Shown: positions 1,016-43,628 of the stretch, in pieces
How the letters are laid out: each line of letters opens with the position of its first letter
How positions within the stretch are numbered: the stretch's first letter is position 1
Source of the DNA: a virus
Lineage: Duplodnaviria > Caudoviricetes
IMG/VR virus record: IMGVR_UViG_3300010047_000005
Coordinates: 1 to 50,900 of that record
DNA: 50,900 nt
Direction: 5' to 3' (one strand)
The notes under the pieces: model-generated
What the model was told of the DNA's origin: nothing
Databases searched by the model: none
Seen by the model: only the letters and a program-made list of their open reading frames with translations
Program-made: the position numbers and the translations under genes

Positions 1016-3574
1016 CTAGGCGAGGGGGGAAAGCCCGGTGCGGGGGATCGTGCCGACGGGTTCGGCGACCCGCATAGGCGCGCGGGTGATCGTGGCCCAC
1101 AGACCCATAACCACGGCGTCGCCCCGGTCGGGGGAGCGGCCGAGGCGCGCGACGACATCCTCCTTCTTCTCGATCTTGTACTTCGCCGGCACGGCGGCCG
1201 TGAGCTCCCACGTCGGCGCCGTGAGGTCGGACAGGAGCAGGTCGTCGGGGGGCAGGCAGAGTGTCGGCTCATACTCGGGGTCCAGGCACTCGCGCAGGAA
1301 CCAGTACGCCGCGCTGCGGACGCCGGCGAACCCGTACTTGCCCGAGCGGTCCTTCCTCGTCGAGGCGCCCGAGCCGACGTACGCGAGGGGCCACTCCTTC
1401 AGGGCGCCCTTCGCCTTCATCTGGCGGAGCCGGTCGAACACCCCGGCGCCGACGCCCACGACGTCGACGATCAGGCGGCCGGGCTCCTGCGCGGCCAGCT
1501 CGGCGAGCGCCATCGTGTCGGGGGTCTTCTTCGCGGTGATCGTGAACGCCTGTCCCGCGAGCCGGGCGAGCACGGAGTCGTCTCCCCCTCGGCCGACATC
1601 GACGCCGGTCCAGGTCGGGCCGTCCAGGGCCGGGCGGCCGGCCCGGTCCCACACGTGCCAGCGCTCGACGGCCGCCTCGACCCACGACAGGGGGATCACG
1701 GCGTTCTCGTCGTCGGCGCAGAACTCGCCGAGCACGCGGCCCTGATAGAGGGCCGAGGTGATGCCCCACTGTTTCGCGCGCTGCTCGGCCCACTGGCGGG
1801 AGACGCGGCCGGCCGTGATCGCCTCGTCAAGGGTGACGTGCCGAGTCCACCAATCTTCGTACCCGGGCTTGCGGGAGTGGATGTCGTAGAAGCGGCCGTT
1901 CGGGGGGCCGGGCGTCGACATGGCGACGACGTACGCCTCGAAGTCCGTGTCGTCTCCGGCGTTGGACAGGGCGCCCTCGATGGCGTCCCACGTCTCGGGG
2001 GGGATGATCTTCGCCTCGTCGAGGATGTACAGGATCTCGTCGGCGTGCGCGCCCTCGACCCGTTCGGCCTGGTTGCTGGCCACGGCCGACGCGGCGCCCC
2101 ACGGGAGTTTCAGTCGGAGGTCGAGGAGTTCCACCCGGTCGAGGAACGGCCCTCGGCCGAGCTGTTCCCAGTCGAGCATCTTCGCCCATTTGTGGATCTC
2201 TGGCCAGAGGTAGACCTCCAGTTGCCTCCAGACGCTCGCGGTCGTGATGACCTTCCAGTCGATCTCGGCGAGCGAGCGCGTGGTCGCGAACCACAGCACG
2301 AGCTGACTCATGGTGGTGCTGTTGTGAGTGGGGACCATACTGTCTCCGGCCAGATACAGCCGGGAGGGCGAGCTAACGGATATGCATTGAGTCGGCTCGT
2401 CATCTACTCTACGGATTGTCGTTATCGTGCGCTGAGTGTGGCGAGAGCCCTGGGATGCACGTTCTGCCCATGGGTAGCGCTCTAGATGGTAGGGCCGGAA
2501 ATCGAATCGGGCCGCGATCCGCCACCGTCGACTGACGATGCGACCATTCAGCTTCGCGTCACTCTCGCTGATGCGCACGACTAGGCCCAAGCTACGGAGA
2601 AGTTCGGCGACGTCGAGGGCGAGCCGTTCACACGTGAGGGCGATTTCATCACACCCGCCACTTTGGGTGTACCCGTCGGTGTCCCATAGGCCCCTGACGA
2701 GCTCGCGACGCTGGGCGATAGAGGCGCGCCGGTAGATCTCGGGAATGTGCTTGTTGCCCAGTACACCCAGGGCGCGGAGTTGCTGACGCAGGCCGGGGAT
2801 GGAATAGGCCCGGCTGTTATCTTTCTCGCCGTAATTAGTGAAATGCCCCCCGGGAATGCGACTGACGATTAGGCCCGAGTCGGCCCGATTGAGCGTGATG
2901 CGGCTGTCGGCTGTCGCGCCATCGCCCAACCAAACTCCGAGCAGGTACGGGTCGATAGGCAGTGGCGCGTTGGGGAGGCTCAGGGGGCGAGTGGTGGGGA
3001 TGCGCCAGCGGAGTTGGCCACTCGGGGACTTTATGTTCCGGCTCATGTGTTCGGTAGTGACTGTGCGCGTCGCGTCCCAGTAATCACGCCAATCCTTCAC
3101 GCCATTCGGGCGACGATAGACGTCGATGGCGTTCCATTCGTGCTGCCCGTGGGATTTCATCACGGTGCCATCGGCGAACGTGATCTCGTAGACGTCGGCG
3201 GTGAAGATCTCAGACTTGCCCGTGACGTGACATATCTGTCCGTTTTCGTCGAATATTTCGTCGCCGACACGGAGATCCCCGATCGTCGACCACCCGCACG
3301 GTGTTGGTATACGCATACCTAAGGGTAGCGCCTTCCCGAGGCCGTGCGGGCCACGTACCGCGATGCGCTTCCGGCGCGGCAGCTCCTCCATCACTTCGAG
3401 CTGATACGGCGCGGCCTGGCGCCCGACCGGCCAGCGGATACAGTCCCGCGCCCACCCCGCAGGATCACGGAGGTACTTCCGGGCCTCGGCCGCCGCGTAC
3501 TCCGCGTCCTGCTCCTTCAGCTCGGCCAAGCGCCGGAGATAGTCCAGGCGGGTCCAGGTCGCAGGGAAGCTCAC
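1016..3574 (-). CDS. terL: Terminase large subunit (intein-containing)
   Basis: Walker A GPHGLGK|ST, Walker B ILYILDEA, nuclease motifs GVDVGRGGDD and SPDRGDA. Confidence 0.95.
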   Translation of the reverse strand: MSFPATWTRLDYLRRLAELKEQDAEYAAAEARKYLRDPAGWARDCIRWPVGRQAAPYQLEVMEELPRRKRIAVRGPHGLGKALPLGMRIPTPCGWSTIGDLRVGDEIFDENGQICHVTGKSEIFTADVYEITFADGTVMKSHGQHEWNAIDVYRRPNGVKDWRDYWDATRTVTTEHMSRNIKSPSGQLRWRIPTTRPLSLPNAPLPIDPYLLGVWLGDGATADSRITLNRADSGLIVSRIPGGHFTNYGEKDNSRAYSIPGLRQQLRALGVLGNKHIPEIYRRASIAQRRELVRGLWDTDGYTQSGGCDEIALTCERLALDVAELLRSLGLVVRISESDAKLNGRIVSRRWRIAARFDFRPYHLERYPWAERASQGSRHTQRTITTIRRVDDEPTQCISVSSPSRLYLAGDSMVPTHNSTTMSQLVLWFATTRSLAEIDWKVITTASVWRQLEVYLWPEIHKWAKMLDWEQLGRGPFLDRVELLDLRLKLPWGAASAVASNQAERVEGAHADEILYILDEAKIIPPETWDAIEGALSNAGDDTDFEAYVVAMSTPGPPNGRFYDIHSRKPGYEDWWTRHVTLDEAITAGRVSRQWAEQRAKQWGITSALYQGRVLGEFCADDENAVIPLSWVEAAVERWHVWDRAGRPALDGPTWTGVDVGRGGDDSVLARLAGQAFTITAKKTPDTMALAELAAQEPGRLIVDVVGVGAGVFDRLRQMKAKGALKEWPLAYVGSGASTRKDRSGKYGFAGVRSAAYWFLRECLDPEYEPTLCLPPDDLLLSDLTAPTWELTAAVPAKYKIEKKEDVVARLGRSPDRGDAVVMGLWATITRAPMRVAEPVGTIPRTGLSPLA
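2321..3331 (-). mobile_element. Class 3 intein with LAGLIDADG homing endonuclease, 337 aa
   Basis: Begins ALPLG after the P-loop Lys and ends VPTHN|S. LAGLIDADG-like motifs LLGVWLGDG and LVRGLWDTDG. Trp (HEW), Cys (TQCISV) and Thr (PTHN) triplet present. Confidence 0.9.
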
Positions 3575-13180: not shown

Positions 13181-13441
13181 ATGAATCGACGTGCGACCGT
13201 CGCGGCTGAACTCGCCGCCTACGCGATCCGTATCGCCCTCGGGCAGGTCGACGTTCCCGCCGAGCAGAAGTACAGCTACGAGCTCGGCCAGGGCCACGAC
13301 TACGAAGCGCCCATCGTCCCCGAAGCGATCCACGCGGCCCTGTGCCACGCCGGCCCCGGGGCGATCCTGCTCTGCGACGAGGCGGCACGGATCAACGTCT
13401 GCGACGCCTGCGGGCTCGCGATCAAGCTGGAGGACCAGTGA
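13181..13441 (+). CDS. Hypothetical protein
   Basis: AGGAGG RBS before ATG 13181. Confidence 0.7.
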   Translation: MNRRATVAAELAAYAIRIALGQVDVPAEQKYSYELGQGHDYEAPIVPEAIHAALCHAGPGAILLCDEAARINVCDACGLAIKLEDQ

Positions 13442-13980
13442 TCATCAATCAGCCCGGGGTGTACGACATCACGCCCGCGCATCGACTTGAGGTTCCCCTT
13501 AGCCGGGGTGATGTTGCGCTGATCAATTCATCCGATTGGGCGGCTATCGAGGGTTACGCATGGAAATCCAAGCTCGGCAATAACGGCAAAAGGTATGCCT
13601 GCGTCACGGTCGGCAGAATCACTATCTATATGCATCGGGTGATTCTGGGGGCGCCTAAAGGTTTCGAGGTTGATCACATCAATGGCGACGGCCTCGACAA
13701 TCGCAGAGAGAATTTACGCCTAGCAAGCCAGTCGCAGAACAGCGCGAACACAGGTAAGCCCAAGAGGCCGGACGGATCGGCTCACACCTCCCAGTTCAAG
13801 GGCGTCACATGGGACCCGATGCGCCGGAAGTGGCAATCGAAGATAACCGTCCTGGGTAAGTGTCGAAGCTTGGGCCGCTTCCTCTGCGAGGAGGAGGCTG
13901 CCAGGGCTTACGACCTGGCCGCACTGTCGACGTGGGGCGAATTTGCTCAGCTTAATTTTCCGATCGGAGTCGAGAAGTGA
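13438..13980 (+). CDS. HNH-AP2 homing endonuclease
   Basis: YMHRVI..VDHINGDGLDNRRENLR..SQN; AP2 motif SQFKGV.W..W..LGRF..EEEAARAYD. Confidence 0.92.
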   Translation: MIINQPGVYDITPAHRLEVPLSRGDVALINSSDWAAIEGYAWKSKLGNNGKRYACVTVGRITIYMHRVILGAPKGFEVDHINGDGLDNRRENLRLASQSQNSANTGKPKRPDGSAHTSQFKGVTWDPMRRKWQSKITVLGKCRSLGRFLCEEEAARAYDLAALSTWGEFAQLNFPIGVEK

Positions 13981-16665: not shown

Positions 16666-17316
16666 TCAACGGTACCGGACGACCGGCCCTCCCCAGTCGA
16701 AGACCGTCCCGCGCTCGGCGAAGCGCCGGGCGACGCGCCCCTCCCCGTGCCCCGAGAGCGAGCCGTCCGGGGGGTGGTCGACGAGGGAGGGCCACGAGTA
16801 CCACGGCTCTAGGCCGGCCGAGCGCGCCCAACGCCCGACGCGCTGGTCGTCGGCGAGCTGGTATTGCCGGTCGGCGTGCTCGATCATCGCGGGAATCCGG
16901 GCCGTCGGCACAGCCAGCGCCACGCCCCACATGAGCATGGGGCCGACGATCCACGCCGCCCCCTGCTCGTCAGCCTTCTTTGCGAGCGCGTGCCAGACCC
17001 CCGGGACCGGGCGCCGGGTGCCCATGTAGAACGAGACGACCGCGTTCTCGGGGACGTACCGCAGCGCCGAGGGGGCCACGCGCAGGAGGTCGGGATTCGC
17101 GATCGCGTCGTCCTGAAGGAGGAGGTGCCAATCGGCCCCCTCGTCTCGAAGCTCCCAGCCTTTTCGGGCCGTGCGCCACGTCCGGTTAGGGTCTCGGCTC
17201 GGTGGCCCCTCGTCGTCCCAACCGACCGGGATTCCCGGGTTCCCGAGATGGCGGTCGAGGTGCGCGACCTGCTCGACCCGGTTTGGATGGGCCATGATGC
17301 TTACCGAGAGCCTCAC
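16666..17316 (-). CDS. Glycosyltransferase-like protein (GT-A)
   Basis: SIMAHPNR, WHLLLQDDA, PSLVDH. Confidence 0.7.
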   Translation of the reverse strand: MRLSVSIMAHPNRVEQVAHLDRHLGNPGIPVGWDDEGPPSRDPNRTWRTARKGWELRDEGADWHLLLQDDAIANPDLLRVAPSALRYVPENAVVSFYMGTRRPVPGVWHALAKKADEQGAAWIVGPMLMWGVALAVPTARIPAMIEHADRQYQLADDQRVGRWARSAGLEPWYSWPSLVDHPPDGSLSGHGEGRVARRFAERGTVFDWGGPVVRYR

Positions 17317-35019: not shown

Positions 35020-35862
35020 TCACGACCAGTGGATCAGTTCCTTGACCTGCGGACGCTCCGCGTCTAGGTCGAAGGCCGCGTGATCCGGGAACGACGCCGC
35101 GCGCCGATTCAGCTCGTCGGTCCCCATGGCGAGCAGCGCCCGGCCACGGACGAAGAAGTCCGTCCCGGACAGCGGCTCCCCGTCACGGTGGTACCCGATG
35201 AACCCGGCGTGATAGGCCCGAGGCACGCACGGGTAGACCGTCGAGAGCTCCCGGTCCTCGGCCACCCGGTGGAGTAGGCCGTCCTGCTCGGCGTTGGCCT
35301 GCGGGATCTTCGACTTCGGAAACCGGCGCCGGCAGTACCCGACCGGATCGCGGTAGTACGCCTCTCGGGCCTCGCGCAGCACGAGCCGGAGAGTCTCGCG
35401 CCGGAAGCTCACCCCGAGGGACTGGTAATCCCGGTGCGCCCACACCATGGCCGGCTCGTCGGGCGGCGTGGCCAGCACGTTCTGATTGCGGCACGCGGAG
35501 ACGGCGAAGGCGGCCGGGGCGATCTCGTGCGCAGCCCGGTGGAACCCGAAGTAGTCCGAGCCGACGAAGACGTCCTCCTCGACGAGGTGCACGAGCTCGG
35601 CGTTCGTATTGACGGCCAGCGCGTAGGACGTGAGCACGTTGTACGAGTTGCCTCGGTAGTGGTGCCTCGGGAGGTGGGTCCGGACCCGGCGCTCGCCGAC
35701 CTGCTTCGCGAACGCCTTCACGACGAGGGCGTTCCGCTGATCGTGGCCCCGGTCCAGGGCGATCAGGTACTCCTGTCGGCCCTCGTCGGCGATCGCGAGG
35801 CGGGACAGGCACGCGTGCAGGAAGTCGGCCCGGCGCCACGCCGGCACGATCACGAGCTCCAT
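35020..35862 (-). CDS. Glycosyltransferase (GT-A)
   Basis: VIVPAWRR, LVEEDVFV, EQDGL, HAGF. Confidence 0.8.
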   Translation of the reverse strand: MELVIVPAWRRADFLHACLSRLAIADEGRQEYLIALDRGHDQRNALVVKAFAKQVGERRVRTHLPRHHYRGNSYNVLTSYALAVNTNAELVHLVEEDVFVGSDYFGFHRAAHEIAPAAFAVSACRNQNVLATPPDEPAMVWAHRDYQSLGVSFRRETLRLVLREAREAYYRDPVGYCRRRFPKSKIPQANAEQDGLLHRVAEDRELSTVYPCVPRAYHAGFIGYHRDGEPLSGTDFFVRGRALLAMGTDELNRRAASFPDHAAFDLDAERPQVKELIHWS

Positions 35863-35863
35863 C

Positions 35864-36430
35864 TCAGGCCCCGAACGGGATGATCAGGATGCCGGTCGCG
35901 TAGTCCTCGCTCCGGCGCTCCTCGATGCGGTACTCGATGCCGGCCCGGTCCAGGAACGGCACGATCGCGTGACCCTTGACGACGCCTTCGGACTCCATGT
36001 CGACGTCATCGACCAGGATGTACCCGGGCGCCCGGACCATGCGCCGAGCGAGGTAGAACTCGTGCAGGATCAGCTCCGCGTCGTTGTCGGAGTCCAGGTA
36101 GATCAGGTGGTACGGCTCCAGCTCGAACGGCTCTTGATCGAGGAGCAGCTCGCCCATGGCGTCGATCGAGTGCGCCTCGATCAGCTTCACGACGCCGAGG
36201 AGCCCCCGGTCGGCGAGGACCCGCGTCGCGACCTTCGTGTCGAGGTCGATCGAGGTCACGTTCCCGCCCGTGGCGACCGCAGCCTCGGCGAACACGACCG
36301 TCGACCACCCGTCGTTGTCGCGGTAGCTGTCGCCCTCCCCTCGGATCGTGCCGGTCTCCAGGATGCGCAGCGCGCCGTACCGCGCGGCGAGCTCGTCGAG
36401 CAGGGGGGTGAGTACTTGTCGGGCCGTCAT
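35864..36430 (-). CDS. Class I SAM-dependent methyltransferase
   Basis: ILETGT, VTSID, LIYLDS, GYILVDD. Confidence 0.85.
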   Translation of the reverse strand: MTARQVLTPLLDELAARYGALRILETGTIRGEGDSYRDNDGWSTVVFAEAAVATGGNVTSIDLDTKVATRVLADRGLLGVVKLIEAHSIDAMGELLLDQEPFELEPYHLIYLDSDNDAELILHEFYLARRMVRAPGYILVDDVDMESEGVVKGHAIVPFLDRAGIEYRIEERRSEDYATGILIIPFGA

Positions 36431-37329
36431 CGAAGCTGCTCCAGTCGGTCGAGGGCGATCTCGGCGAACGCCCGGTTCCTGTTCTCGAAGTGTGCACGCG
36501 CCATCTCCCGCGCCTTCGCCCGGTCCTCGTCGGACCAGTGCGCCACGGCCCGGACGGCCTTCGCGAGGGTGCGGGCGTCGACGTGGGACTCGCGCACCAT
36601 GCCCCGCCCGGTCGTGCGTACCGGCTCGACGAGGGCGCCCCACTCGGGGGCGACGTGCTCGTTCATCGGGGACGCGTTGGTCGTGACGACCGCAGCGCCG
36701 ACCGACAGGCCCTCGGTGATGTAGTGCCCCCACCCCTCCGACGTCGAGGGGCACACGTGGATCGAGTGCCGATTCAGCTCACGGCGTAACTGCTCGGGCG
36801 TGAGCCGGCCGACGAGGCGCACGTTCCGGGGCACCGGGAACTGTGTCGCCGACACGATCGTGAGCGGCGGGAGGTCGGGGTACTTCCGCCATGCGTCCAG
36901 GACGTGCCTGGTCCCCTTGAAATCGGACTTGCCCCGCAGGTGCAGGACCCGGGGCTCGCGCTCGACGGCCGCGTCCAGGTAGTCCCTGGAGGCGAACCCG
37001 GTGTACGTCGAGTTCTTCAGGCCGAGGCCCTGATAGATCGTGTGCGCCTCGCGGGACTTCGCCCATAGCTGGCTGATCGTCCACAGGTGGCGCTTCCAAG
37101 AATCTTGGAACCATTCCAGATTGAAGATGCCAACCGTCCGGCGCGCGTACCGGGCAAGCGTCGGGTTCCACAGTTCGAGGAAGATCGCGACGTCGCACCG
37201 GGGCATCACTCGCTTGGACCACTCGACCCGGGTCACGGAGTGCCCGCGCTCGGCGAGCACTCCTTCGAGAAGGTCCATGTCCGCGCTGAGACCCACCCCG
37301 TTGTCGCGGCTCACGAGGTGGACCTTCAT
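36427..37329 (-). CDS. Glycosyltransferase (GT-B, GT4-like)
   Basis: CPSTSEGWGHYITEG EX7E motif; start MKVHLVSRDNG. Confidence 0.88.
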   Translation of the reverse strand: MKVHLVSRDNGVGLSADMDLLEGVLAERGHSVTRVEWSKRVMPRCDVAIFLELWNPTLARYARRTVGIFNLEWFQDSWKRHLWTISQLWAKSREAHTIYQGLGLKNSTYTGFASRDYLDAAVEREPRVLHLRGKSDFKGTRHVLDAWRKYPDLPPLTIVSATQFPVPRNVRLVGRLTPEQLRRELNRHSIHVCPSTSEGWGHYITEGLSVGAAVVTTNASPMNEHVAPEWGALVEPVRTTGRGMVRESHVDARTLAKAVRAVAHWSDEDRAKAREMARAHFENRNRAFAEIALDRLEQLR

Positions 37330-37340
37330 CTGACCTTCCC

Positions 37341-37478
37341 TCACTTCTTCTTCGGAGGTTGGATCTTTGCTCCCGGGTACTTCGCCGCGTACGTGTTTGC
37401 CTGCGCCTCGCTCGTGAAGTACCTGCGCGGCCCTTTGCCGGCGGGCGGAATCACGAGCCACTTCGTGCACATGCACAT
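37341..37478 (-). CDS. Small basic protein, 45 aa
   Basis: Manual translation MCMCTKWLVIPPAGKGPRRYFTSEAQA..; TGATG coupling to the protease. Confidence 0.65.
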   Translation of the reverse strand: MCMCTKWLVIPPAGKGPRRYFTSEAQANTYAAKYPGAKIQPPKKK

Positions 37479-39211
37479 CAGGCGTCACCAACCGCTAGCG
37501 CCAGCTCGGCGCGCATCTTCTCCGCGTCCATGCCCATGAGAGACGCCAGCTCCTCGCGGAGCTTGCTCTTCTCGCCCTCCTCGGCCTGGATTTCCAGGAA
37601 TGCCGCGAAGGCTTCCCGGGCGATCTCGCCGACGTCGACGCGCTGCGGGGCGCCCTCCGGCTCGGGGCCGAAGCTGGCGACCAGCGCAGTCTGTCGCCCC
37701 CGGTACGAGTGCGTCGCGACCGGGAACCCGGGCTCGGAGTACAGGCGCGGGCCGGGCGAGAGCGCCAGGACCTCGACGAGCGCCAGGCCCTCGGCGACCT
37801 CGCGCCAGTCCCCGGACACCTTGCGCCGGGTGAGCACGCGCATAGTCCGATCGTCGATGTCGGCCGCGATCGGGCCGCACACGAAGATCCCCCACTTGTC
37901 AGTGGTGGCCTGCACGTAGGCCGCCTCCGTCTTGTCGTCGTACGCGCGCCGGGTGGCGTCGGCCGACAGCTCCAGTCCCGCGTGCCTTCCCCCGACCGTG
38001 ATCCGCCCGGCGAACACGGGGCCGTCTTCGGTCTCGATCGGGATGCGGTTGAACTCGGGGTAATCCCCGGACTCGTCGATCGGGGGCAGCACGCACGTGT
38101 CTTTGAATCCGACGTGGCAGGTGTGCCGGAGCGCGATGTGACCGTACGCCCGGGGCGGGTCGGCCTCGAAGTCGTACGTGATCGGCGTCGGACCCTTGAT
38201 CTCGACGGGGGAGACGAACGCGCGCGCCGGGTAGTCGATATCGGCGGTCGCCATAGTGGCCACGAGCGCGGCGTGAGCGGCCTCGTCGGAGTCGAAGGGG
38301 CACTCCGGCCAGTCCTCGTACTGCTCGCGCACGCGTGCGTACAGGGTGCACGTGCGGCCCTCTAGGGCCTTCTGATCCGAGGAGCTGATCCCCTTCGTCG
38401 CGCCGATCCCCCGGCCGCCCGCGAGTGCGGCGACGCCGCGCGGCACGATCCGGAGCTCGCCGTCGACGATGTCCGCGAACCCGAGCCGGTAATCACCGCG
38501 CTTGGTGCCGTCGCCGTCGACCCACAGGAACGCCTTCCCAGCGCGCTGCTTGTCGACGTTGCCGTCCTCGTCGGAGTAAGCGTCGAACACGCGGCCGGCC
38601 GCAGCGCCCCCGTCCCACTCGTGCTCACGGTCGTCGACGACGGGGAGCTTCGAGTCGCCGGAGACGGAGGCGACGATCGAGATCTCATCCTCGTCTTCGC
38701 TGGTGACGTCGCACTCGTCGTCCTCGTACAGCTCGAACGTGTGGTTCGTCTCGACGTACGCCGGGATGTCGACCAGGGTCGCCGCCCGAATCCGGCCCTT
38801 CGTCACGAGGAGTTCGAGCTCGACCTCCGGGTCCTCCAGGGCGTCTATGTCGACGGGCTCGTTCGAGCCGACCCGAACCGGCACGGCATCGAAATCGTCA
38901 AGGTCGACGGACAGGCCGAGGACGCCTTCCCTGATTAGCGTCATTGCCGTGGCCACGTCCTCAGCGAGTCGAGGCATTCTCTCGCGGTCGATGTCGTCGA
39001 AGATCACACCCTCGACCCAGACTTCGTTGTCCCCCATTTCTACCTTGTCGATCTTCCCGATCGTCACGGCGCCATCGTGGCCACCAATGTCTTCTCGGGG
39101 CCACCGCAGCGGGAGTGGGGTATCCGCAACGGTCAGGGCATCCCCGAGGCGCCTGCGGTCCCCGGTCGACACATCGATCGGAGCGGCCAGCGCGCGGAAG
39201 CGTGTCGCCAT
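37478..39211 (-). CDS. Capsid maturation protease
   Basis: GHDGAVTIG, GLSVDLDD, AATLVDIPAY; between MuF and capsid genes. Confidence 0.8.
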   Translation of the reverse strand: MATRFRALAAPIDVSTGDRRRLGDALTVADTPLPLRWPREDIGGHDGAVTIGKIDKVEMGDNEVWVEGVIFDDIDRERMPRLAEDVATAMTLIREGVLGLSVDLDDFDAVPVRVGSNEPVDIDALEDPEVELELLVTKGRIRAATLVDIPAYVETNHTFELYEDDECDVTSEDEDEISIVASVSGDSKLPVVDDREHEWDGGAAAGRVFDAYSDEDGNVDKQRAGKAFLWVDGDGTKRGDYRLGFADIVDGELRIVPRGVAALAGGRGIGATKGISSSDQKALEGRTCTLYARVREQYEDWPECPFDSDEAAHAALVATMATADIDYPARAFVSPVEIKGPTPITYDFEADPPRAYGHIALRHTCHVGFKDTCVLPPIDESGDYPEFNRIPIETEDGPVFAGRITVGGRHAGLELSADATRRAYDDKTEAAYVQATTDKWGIFVCGPIAADIDDRTMRVLTRRKVSGDWREVAEGLALVEVLALSPGPRLYSEPGFPVATHSYRGRQTALVASFGPEPEGAPQRVDVGEIAREAFAAFLEIQAEEGEKSKLREELASLMGMDAEKMRAELALAVGDA

Positions 39212-39215
39212 GGTC

Positions 39216-40934
39216 TTACCTCCCTTTTGACTGTCGGTTCGACAGATCGAGCGCCTCGCCCACGGGGACGAGAAGCGTGGTGCACCGGCACGAAATTACG
39301 TTTCCTGCCGACCCGGACGGATCGCCGGGGAACATGAGAGCTTCTCCGCCCACGTCGAAGGGCATGTTCGGCGCGCGACGCTGCCCGTCCGCGAGGCGAT
39401 GGGCTTCACGTGTACGTAGGTCCGCAGTCGCTAACCAAATTTTGACGAGCTCCTCGTTAGACCGGGCCGCGAAGGCCATGTTCGCGTCGTTGCGGGACGC
39501 GTTTAGCGCTCCGAGCGTATTCCCGCTATAATGGGAGCCGACACCAAACCACCCCCTACGAGTAGTGAGGTTGTAAACGTGACCAGAGAATCGAATTCTC
39601 TCAACGCGCAAGATCTTATCGACGCCTACCGGTCGGGCTATGGGATCCAGGCTGTTGCTCAGCAGTTCGGCGTCAGTTACAAGAGGGTCCGATCCGTACT
39701 CTCCGACGGCGGGGAGCCGATTCGCAGCCTGAGCGCCGCAAAGAGAGCTCAGTTTGACCTTCTCGGAAAGAAGGGGGCGCGGTGGCTTGACCTGGACGTG
39801 GAGGCCCTCGCTACTGAGTACTCCGAAGGAGCGAGCGCTTCCGACCTTGCGGAAAAATTCGGAATCAGCATCGACACCGTAGAGCGAAGGCTGCGCCCAC
39901 TGGGAATCATGCGCCCAGCCGGGATGGCCACCAATCGTGAGAAGTTGGCTCGCTCCATGCAGGGATGCGAGACTCGGGTTGGCGAATTCGAGGCCGAGGT
40001 CACAGCGATGCTGAGCACCTTGCAGCCCGTCAAGCAGCTCCCAGTCGGTAGTCGCAACATCGACATAGCCGTTCATCCCATCGCCGTGGAAGTCTGGCTT
40101 TCCAGTCTGCGACCGGATAACGACGCCTACTGTCGAGAGCGCATCGTAGAGTTCGGCAATGCTGGCTGGCATACGGCCTATATCCACATTTCCCGACGCA
40201 CGAAGACCTTGTCCACCCGGGTGGCAGAGCAGATCATCGCCTGGCATGAGGCCGCCAGCGCCAACCCAGCCGCACGCCGTGAGTATCGGGTGATTCGCGG
40301 TAGCGGTGAACTGCTCTCCCGAGGACATGTATATCCGGAACGCGTCCCCCTCGTACCGGCGTCGGTAGACGGCCTTGATCCCGTCTGACTGAACCAGGGC
40401 ATCCCCAGTCAGGCATTCGGTCCTGGCGATCACCACGGCTCGATTCTCCCAGCGTGGCGTACGGGTCGCCGAGAGCACCTTGTCGACCCGGGCTGAGATC
40501 TCGGGGATCGCTTCGCCGAGGCCGACGGCCGCCGCGATCTGTCCCGTGATCAGGTTGAACACTTCGTTCGGGGTGTTGGACATGCGGTTGCGGACGCCAG
40601 CGAGGTACGTCTCGACGGCCGGGCGGCCCTCCCAGGCGTAGCCGTCGCCGAGGAGTTTCGCGTACGCCCACCCCATCACGGGCTTGATGCCTTCCTGGAT
40701 GATCGCCGTGATGTTGCGTTGCCAGGCCGGGACCTCCGACCAGACCTCGACGGGATCGGGCATCCCCGCGCCCCGGGTCACGCGGCCGGCCGTCGAGGTG
40801 ACCCACGAGGCGAGCCGATCCCACACGACCCGGAAGATCTTCCGCTCGGCCGTGGCGGCGTCGAGCGCTGCGGCGAGCCGGGCCGGCAACCACGGGTCTT
40901 CGCCGTGCCCATCCCACACGGGCGGGGGCTTCAC
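39216..40934 (-). CDS. MuF-like head morphogenesis protein with intein
   Basis: RAVVIARTE|T, KIWLATADLRTREAH, FPGDP, NVISCRC; follows portal. Confidence 0.9.
   Translation of the reverse strand: MKPPPVWDGHGEDPWLPARLAAALDAATAERKIFRVVWDRLASWVTSTAGRVTRGAGMPDPVEVWSEVPAWQRNITAIIQEGIKPVMGWAYAKLLGDGYAWEGRPAVETYLAGVRNRMSNTPNEVFNLITGQIAAAVGLGEAIPEISARVDKVLSATRTPRWENRAVVIARTECLTGDALVQSDGIKAVYRRRYEGDAFRIYMSSGEQFTATANHPILTACGWVGAGGLMPGDDLLCHPGGQGLRASGNVDIGRMPASIAELYDALSTVGVVIRSQTGKPDFHGDGMNGYVDVATTDWELLDGLQGAQHRCDLGLEFANPSLASLHGASQLLTIGGHPGWAHDSQWAQPSLYGVDADSEFFRKVGSARSFGVLSSEGLHVQVKPPRPLLSEKVKLSSLCGAQAANRLPAVGEYGSDPLVTDAELLSNSLDPIARPVGVDKILRVERIRFSGHVYNLTTRRGWFGVGSHYSGNTLGALNASRNDANMAFAARSNEELVKIWLATADLRTREAHRLADGQRRAPNMPFDVGGEALMFPGDPSGSAGNVISCRCTTLLVPVGEALDLSNRQSKGR
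39527..39571 (+). promoter_or_regulatory. Candidate -10 box and RBS for the antisense nuclease gene
   Basis: TATAAT at 39527-39532, GAGGT at 39567-39571, in-frame GTG at 39579. Confidence 0.55.
39579..40388 (+). CDS. Tandem HTH plus Vsr/DUF559-like PD-(D/E)XK endonuclease, antisense inside the intein
   Basis: Two HTH repeats (YRSGYGIQAVAQQFGVS; YSEGASASDLAEKFGIS), then EFEAEV, KQLPVGSRNIDIAVHPIAVEV, D..R..GW. ORF is open from ATG 39531. Confidence 0.8.
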   Translation: MTRESNSLNAQDLIDAYRSGYGIQAVAQQFGVSYKRVRSVLSDGGEPIRSLSAAKRAQFDLLGKKGARWLDLDVEALATEYSEGASASDLAEKFGISIDTVERRLRPLGIMRPAGMATNREKLARSMQGCETRVGEFEAEVTAMLSTLQPVKQLPVGSRNIDIAVHPIAVEVWLSSLRPDNDAYCRERIVEFGNAGWHTAYIHISRRTKTLSTRVAEQIIAWHEAASANPAARREYRVIRGSGELLSRGHVYPERVPLVPASVDGLDPV

Positions 40935-43064: not shown

Positions 43065-43574
43065 TCACATGGTAGGTGACCCGGATACAAGTCGACCCCG
43101 CACGGCTAGCTCGTGACTGGCGAGATAGGCGGCTGCCCGCGCAAGAAGGTCTTGGCTATCCCGGAAATAGCCAAGGGCCAAGTTGCATGGGCGACACAGG
43201 ACACCTCTCGTGCACTTCTGGCACGGGCGTCGCCCCGCAGGGTGGCAAGAGTGGTCATGGTCTACCGCGAAGCGAGGGGCGCCCTCCTGCGGGATCGCTC
43301 CGCAAATTGCGCACATACCACCTTGGCTGGCCAGGATTCTGTCGTATTTCGCGTGATACCTGGCTTCCTTAAGCCGCCACTTGCCACGATGGTCGCGAGG
43401 GACGCGAGATCGGTGCTCCTCCTCGGCCGTAGGGCACGACCATCGATACGCGCCTCCAGGCTTCCGGGGATTCCTCCCTCTTAGCCGCGTTGGGCCGCAC
43501 TTCGCGCACACCCCAGTGCGAGCCTCGGGGTCAACTCCCGTGATGACGTGTATCGACTTTCTCCCGGCTTCCAT
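43065..43574 (-). CDS. Endonuclease VII-family nuclease
   Basis: QGGMCAIC..AVDHDH..RGVLCRPCNLALG..D..AAAYL. Confidence 0.9.
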   Translation of the reverse strand: MEAGRKSIHVITGVDPEARTGVCAKCGPTRLRGRNPRKPGGAYRWSCPTAEEEHRSRVPRDHRGKWRLKEARYHAKYDRILASQGGMCAICGAIPQEGAPRFAVDHDHSCHPAGRRPCQKCTRGVLCRPCNLALGYFRDSQDLLARAAAYLASHELAVRGRLVSGSPTM

Positions 43575-43591
43575 GTGGTCAACATACAAGA

Positions 43592-43628
43592 GACCCCGCA
43601 CGGGTTCAATTTCACCTCGTGCGGGGTC
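43592..43628 (-). terminator. Terminator after the FtsK-like gene
   Basis: gaccccgcacg...cgtgcggggtc. Confidence 0.7.

Follow-up and report, generated by a model that had tools for sequence, protein, structure and literature searches.

Introduction

Inteins that carry an endonuclease gene on their opposite strand are known. A preprint by Gosselin, Arsenault and Gogarten (bioRxiv 10.1101/2025.01.02.630785) reports anti-sense VSR-like endonucleases matching 1CW0 in full actinobacteriophage inteins, states that the minor capsid inteins all have non-canonical endonucleases, places secondary open reading frames (ORFs) typically outside the splicing domain, and credits the anti-sense LAGLIDADG inteins of Synechocystis DnaX and a Chloroflexus SpoVR-like protein to Gorbalenya 1998. 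Its main text makes no mention of promoters, ribosome sites or start codons. Here we analyse an intein in the MuF minor head protein gene on a 50,900-nucleotide stretch of viral DNA (IMG/VR record IMGVR_UViG_3300010047_000005, positions 1 to 50,900; hereafter the window), which by its gene content reads as a tailed phage from soil. We consider it quite probable that this MuF intein carries an opposite-strand gene for a Vsr-type homing endonuclease, with its own promoter and ribosome site within the last 21 intein codons. To the first-pass annotation, made from the sequence alone, the arrangement had appeared new; it is already published, for VSR-like enzymes in the preprint and for LAGLIDADG enzymes, by the preprint's account, since 1998, and is not a discovery of ours. 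What we add are predicted antisense expression signals in splicing blocks F and G and an apparently constrained sense segment at intein residues 83-124, the former being sequence evidence on antisense gene expression, a point left open in the preprint's main text. Inteins of this kind are easily annotated as decayed.

From the anti-sense VSR-like inteins of the preprint, as they are described there, the family of the window intein differs in reaching well beyond actinophages. With the anti-sense LAGLIDADG inteins cited in the same source it shares a separate opposite-strand endonuclease gene inside a contiguous intein, but the nuclease family differs. The genes reported by Dassa 2009 (PMC2677866) are free-standing and lie on the same strand between the halves of split inteins, whereas the window gene is antisense. 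Compared with the EDxHD enzyme I-Bth0305I in its published description (PMC3239194), the window nuclease has helix-turn-helix (HTH) units instead of NUMOD repeats, and its clade is without the catalytic His. Canonical class 1 inteins (Mtu RecA, Npu DnaB, NrdJ-1) have block B at about residue 60-70, whereas it stands at about residue 39 here; moreover, the window intein is without an in-frame endonuclease, its family has Asn at position F4 in 54 of 61 divergent members, and an extra conserved segment follows the N-terminal blocks.

Results and discussion

A MuF intein with a predicted nuclease gene on the opposite strand

The first-pass annotation had described a MuF intein with an opposite-strand ORF nested inside it, and this observation is confirmed: the class 1 residues C1, T39-A-N-H42, N299 and +1 Thr are present, and the in-register antisense frame is open (Table 1). 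An empty homologue of 273 aa (P0254) runs unbroken across RTE|TLGA, from which the insertion in the window is precise and in-frame; a contig end at 40416 counts in the same direction. The intein model has the Hint fold of class 1 inteins, with block B about 25-30 residues earlier than is canonical (4lx3_A 1-99 aligned to model residues 4-72) and about 30 residues missing after block A, and splicing is predicted. No in-frame endonuclease is recognisable in the intein, for which Pfam finds Intein_splicing only and whose linker is unstructured in the AlphaFold model.

For the reverse frame, domain searches and model folds agree with the two HTH repeats and the Vsr/DUF559-like nuclease that had been proposed. 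The C-terminal catalytic domain matches 1CW0 and is homologous to Vsr, with the conserved Glu and Asp of the EDxHD type, and the domain families listed for the N-terminus are HTH families only, with no NUMOD repeats among them. As the EDxHD His is lacking, the protein is not filed here as a strict EDxHD member. Splicing domain and predicted nuclease are, as had been claimed, separate proteins on opposite strands, and both ends of the ORF are double-coded with splicing motifs, the start lying within the block F/G codons and the C-terminal end opposite block A.

The antisense frame is intact across a wide family

A profile search with E no higher than 1e-30 gave 765 clusters (50% identity), some of which may match through the HTH units only. 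IMG/VR contributed 214 relatives (80 retained); matches also came from 37 phage records and five loci in prokaryote genomes. The closest named relatives of the element are Gordonia phages, with matches to antisense frames in their MuF genes. Because the family includes cultured E. coli and Gordonia phages, among them fEg-Eco06 and Angelicage respectively, homing, its timing and splicing can be tested now.

The 80 IMG/VR relatives, three annotated phages and the window made up 84 loci; intein boundaries were parsed in 76 of these, giving 64 unique inteins and 61 once those at least 60% identical had been dropped. The in-register opposite frame is open in 84/84 loci, a count biased toward openness by one search pattern that covered block B. 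To remove this bias, a second sample was drawn with no criterion other than the block B DNA pattern, 80 of its 120 matches being taken, and 79/80 matched the nuclease profile in the same antisense register, a figure to be read with the fact that in cut contigs the block B overlap alone can match; the single non-matching intein is of canonical length. This sample held 61 complete inteins, of which 57 were unique and new. The antisense frame is open in 55 of the 57, with a start codon at the His position in 53, a -10 box in 33 and a strict Shine-Dalgarno sequence in 32.

One locus (L142) has 11 stops in the antisense frame while its intein frame is open and FHGD is kept, that is, a broken nuclease with the sense motif retained. 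Separately, 63 Salmonella phage records and Snoke (L211) match the intein's N-terminal part and gave no match in the antisense protein search.

Codons of blocks F and G carry predicted antisense expression signals

Read on the plus strand, the family's final 21 intein codons give a TATAAT-like box followed by GGAGGTTRTANAC and ATG. In 46/61 inteins, the His codon preceding VYNL gives the start as its reverse complement; among the remaining 15, an ATG lies two codons further (FHG) in 12. None of the 46 has both starts and three of the 61 have neither, so that a start codon is present in 58/61. We resampled synonymous codons in the 61 divergent inteins with host or intein codon use. A Shine-Dalgarno sequence was observed in 51/61 against 17.4 (host) or 18.2 (intein) expected, and a -10 box in 35/61 against 3.2 or 9.8. 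The rare ATA codon at block G position -4 occurs 21 times against 3.5 expected, and the block F Leu codon is CTC 53 times and CTG once. In all other windows of the resampling, on both strands, z never rose above +2.9. These counts show selection on the synonymous codons of blocks F and G for what we predict to be antisense expression signals. A TG extension is present in 18/61 members and absent in the window, where the consensus scan gave no good -35 and no full antisense promoter. At the other end of the gene, the stop codon is the reverse complement of intein codon 2 in 21/61. The suggestion that the nuclease can be expressed independently is borne out as far as a predicted promoter, ribosome site and start of its own, all read from sequence.

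Selection acts on both frames, with residues 83-124 predicted to join the Hint core

Nuclease residues 156-269 are antisense to intein residues 11-124, codon in register, and conservation was compared between codon positions in 60 sequences (one containing an N was dropped). Over HTH2 (p 6e-5) and the connecting helix (p 2e-3), conservation is stronger at nuclease codon position 1 than at position 3; over blocks A (p 8e-6) and F/G (p 2e-6) the reverse holds, and over HTH1 (p 0.4) and the nuclease core (p 0.08) neither position is clearly favoured. By these codon patterns both frames are under selection, in different places. The expectation that the antisense frame would be conserved and the sense linker not holds over HTH2 and the connecting helix and fails over the DFHGD codons, which are fixed synonymously: the I/V-A-V-E codons of the nuclease have synonymous-position identities of 1.00, 1.00, 0.97 and 0.87, compared with 0.43 at E138, 0.32 at L145, 0.32 at G157 and 0.27 at G196.

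In the sense frame, D112 and G111 of DFHGD are found in 61/61 inteins and H110 in 60/61, and variants in the second sample are mostly conservative (H to N/Y, F to L, G to A/S, D to E/N). AlphaFold predicts a helix and strands at intein residues 84-103 and 117-122 with good confidence, a loop for DFHGD with a confidence of about 60, and a disordered stretch from about residue 130 to 258 (predicted local distance difference test below 50 for most of model residues 135-263). The earlier view that the sense linker is without a domain stands for about residues 130-258 and fails for 83-124; a folded domain there had been set against the nuclease, and we read its partial presence as dual selection that leaves the nuclease prediction in place. 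Covariation in 220 sequences couples positions 7-84 (z 6.2), 109-282 (5.2), 86-283, 5-87, 1-110 and 121-289, and 11 pairs with z above 3.5 join segment 83-124 to the Hint core, compared with 3, 1 and 0 for linker segments and 0-2 in eight shuffles, although the control segments are gappier and the shuffles ignore relatedness. The coupled contacts presumably resemble those of the canonical segment after block A. We predict from these models that residues 83-124 are conserved, folded and coupled to the Hint core, and that they likely make up for the stretch missing after block A.

Apart from the limits of the covariation, three results weigh against a splicing role. The segment has no sequence match in the PDB and no Pfam family in more than 1/60 members, a de-permutation test against canonical inteins was negative, and members at the third insertion site (WL|S-T) read NLDSD or DFDSE at the motif. 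Alternatively, the invariant [GA]TC GCC GTG GAA and the conservation of 83-124 might be a shadow of the nuclease, or a DNA or RNA signal such as an autoregulatory site, with no role in splicing. The in-register overlap shares the second codon position, so that nuclease conservation spills into the sense frame, and the missing matches and the de-permutation result speak for this explanation too. We nevertheless regard it as unlikely, if a serious contender, since third positions are fixed for A169 (1.00) and V170 (0.97) and not for the other conserved nuclease residues, the sense-frame variants are mostly conservative, and the nuclease ORF of the window does not extend over several of the coupling partners (5, 7, 281-283, 289).

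Returning to a splicing role for 83-124, we hold its fullest form to be an evenly balanced proposition: a rearranged splicing domain in which the Hint fold would be completed by 83-124 on the back of the nuclease active site, blocks F and G would double as promoter, ribosome site and start, splicing and homing would be locked together by overprinting, the nuclease core could not be lost by deletion, and FHGD would perhaps be catalytic. FHGD, which would sit close to Cys1 and the F4 Asn, may be a catalytic motif not yet described in inteins; neither a DFHGD motif nor a rearranged Hint domain was found in the literature searched. If 83-124 is part of the splicing fold and antisense to the nuclease core, the core is likely not deletable without harm to splicing, and such a lock would stand in the way of the decay by which inteins usually become mini-inteins. 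We regard an interlock of the two genes as likely, with freedom in length left solely to the HTH region opposite the disordered linker; this fits the range of 218-342 aa of the antisense protein across the family. A natural overlap of two folded domains, predicted here for about 115 codons between the core of a nuclease and a portion of a Hint domain, bears on the origin of overlapping genes and on why the nuclease is so rarely lost.

Filled and empty alleles intermingle

An N-extein tree of 62 rows (P0025, P0026, P0031 and P0033 onward were left out) holds 19 filled and 43 empty alleles, 39 short homologues being empty because of the length limit of the search. The filled/empty label changes nine times, at least seven of them forced by starred branches, and the window allele lies within a 100/100 clade of three empty alleles. 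This interleaving upholds the earlier claim of a mobile element and fits homing, gain and loss not being separable on the tree.

Within MuF, the family occupies three insertion sites, RTE|T, |CRC and WL|S-T. This observation rests on P0014, P0033 and P0038 together with P0013, P0024, P0028 and P0032, some of which carry two such inteins. P0013, with an N-extein 90% identical to that of the window, is empty at RTE|T and filled at the CRC site. In the window, the C-extein at 39270-39330 (minus strand) reads SAGNVISCRC, at the CRC site, where the three closest relatives have IQC. Identity to these relatives is lower in the C-extein (77-80%) than in the N-extein (86-90%), and the divergence could be due to co-conversion or to escape from a CRC-site nuclease. 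Outside MuF, antisense-nuclease inteins are carried by L029, L044, L069, L012 and L019; the hosts include what we take, by motif, to be a terminase and two uracil-DNA-glycosylase-like domains, plus two further genes.

Proposed homing cycle and alternatives

The intein boundaries, the intact in-register antisense ORF, the Vsr and Hint folds of the models, the conserved acidic residues, the codon-level selection and the patchy presence come from sequence and computation. From there, we propose that plus-strand transcription by host RNA polymerase would begin from the -10 box at 39527 and probably precede that of the late head operon, and that a 269-aa protein would start at GTG 39579 independently of that operon. 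An intein-free RTE|T junction carried by a co-infecting phage would be bound by its HTH units and cut by its Vsr domain, and repair would copy 897 bp into the cut allele; late in infection, the MuF precursor would splice the intein out.

Two findings count against a cutting enzyme expressed in this way: the EDxHD His is absent in the window and in 9/9 RTE|-site members (it is present in 80/150 of the wider family), and 43/141 host-gene windows are open in the same register. The family might be a homing element of which the window copy and the RTE|-site clade bind DNA without cutting, or only nick it, the ORF being kept open by the intein overlap and GC-rich codon use. Such a reading gains from H213 being the predicted general base of I-Bth0305I in its published description (PMC3239194) and from antisense frames often being open by chance in the window. 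It appears improbable to us, as N-x-D and AVE are kept in 9/9, W-x-[SG]...P-x-x-D-x-Y-C stands in for the His in 8/9 and has the look of an exchange shared by the clade, the window retains the GAGG, the start and a perfect TATAAT, and its nearest extein relatives are empty. That a GC-rich gene leaves the plus-strand ORF open by chance, as an antisense shadow over a decayed in-frame endonuclease, would agree with the 43/141 open windows and is refuted by the HTH and Vsr folds, the invariant residues, the linker-specific plus-frame selection and the strand-specific expression signals.

Genomic setting

The minus-strand genes of the window include terminase, portal, MuF, major head, tape measure and FtsK-like genes, and the MuF gene comes after the portal gene. 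Its product matches Phage_Mu_F with E 3e-6, slightly short of the Pfam cut-off, and phrog_2468 with E 2e-36.

Table 1. Features of the MuF intein locus, in window coordinates
Feature	Position	Strand	Remarks
MuF / SPP1 gp7-like minor head protein gene	39216..40934	-	572 aa precursor; 273 aa after predicted splicing
Class 1-type intein, 299 aa, C1...N299, +1 Thr, at IARTE|TLGA	39519..40415	-	
Intein block A (CLTGDALVQSDGI)	40377..40415	-	
Intein block B (FTATANHPILT), residues 36-46	40278..40310	-	antisense to nuclease EYRVIRG
Intein residues 83-124: P-x-x-I-E-E-V-F helix, DFHGD, V-D-V-V strand	40044..40169	-	antisense to nuclease catalytic strands
DFHGD motif, intein residues 108-112	40080..40094	-	reverse complement of nuclease IAVEV
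Sense linker, predicted disordered, about intein residues 130-258	39642..40028	-	antisense to HTH repeats and connecting helix
Intein blocks F and G (HVYNLTTRRGWFGVGSHYSGN)	39519..39581	-	Asn at F4; penultimate His absent
Antisense gene, 269 aa: two HTH units and Vsr/DUF559/MTES_1575-type nuclease domain; predicted homing endonuclease	39579..40388	+	
Two HTH units, about aa 10-43 and 74-108; predicted DNA recognition	39606..39902	+	
Vsr-fold nuclease domain, aa 132-250	39972..40328	+	conserved E138, Q153, N160, D162, E171
TATAAT, predicted -10 box	39527..39532	+	formed by block G His-Tyr-Ser codons
GAGG, predicted Shine-Dalgarno	39567..39570	+	from block F Asn-Leu codons (AAC CTC); 8 nt before start
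GTG start	39579..39581	+	reverse complement of His codon before VYNL

A second, conventional intein lies in the terminase large subunit (1016-3574, minus strand); it follows GPHGLGK, begins with Ala, ends HN|S and has an in-frame LAGLIDADG domain (Pfam E 3e-7). Free-standing genes elsewhere in the window encode an endonuclease VII-like protein (43065-43601, minus strand) and an HNH protein (13342-13980, plus strand). Glycosyltransferase-like genes are found at 35020-37491 (minus strand), between the protease-like and major head genes, and at 16666-17316 (minus strand), near tail genes.
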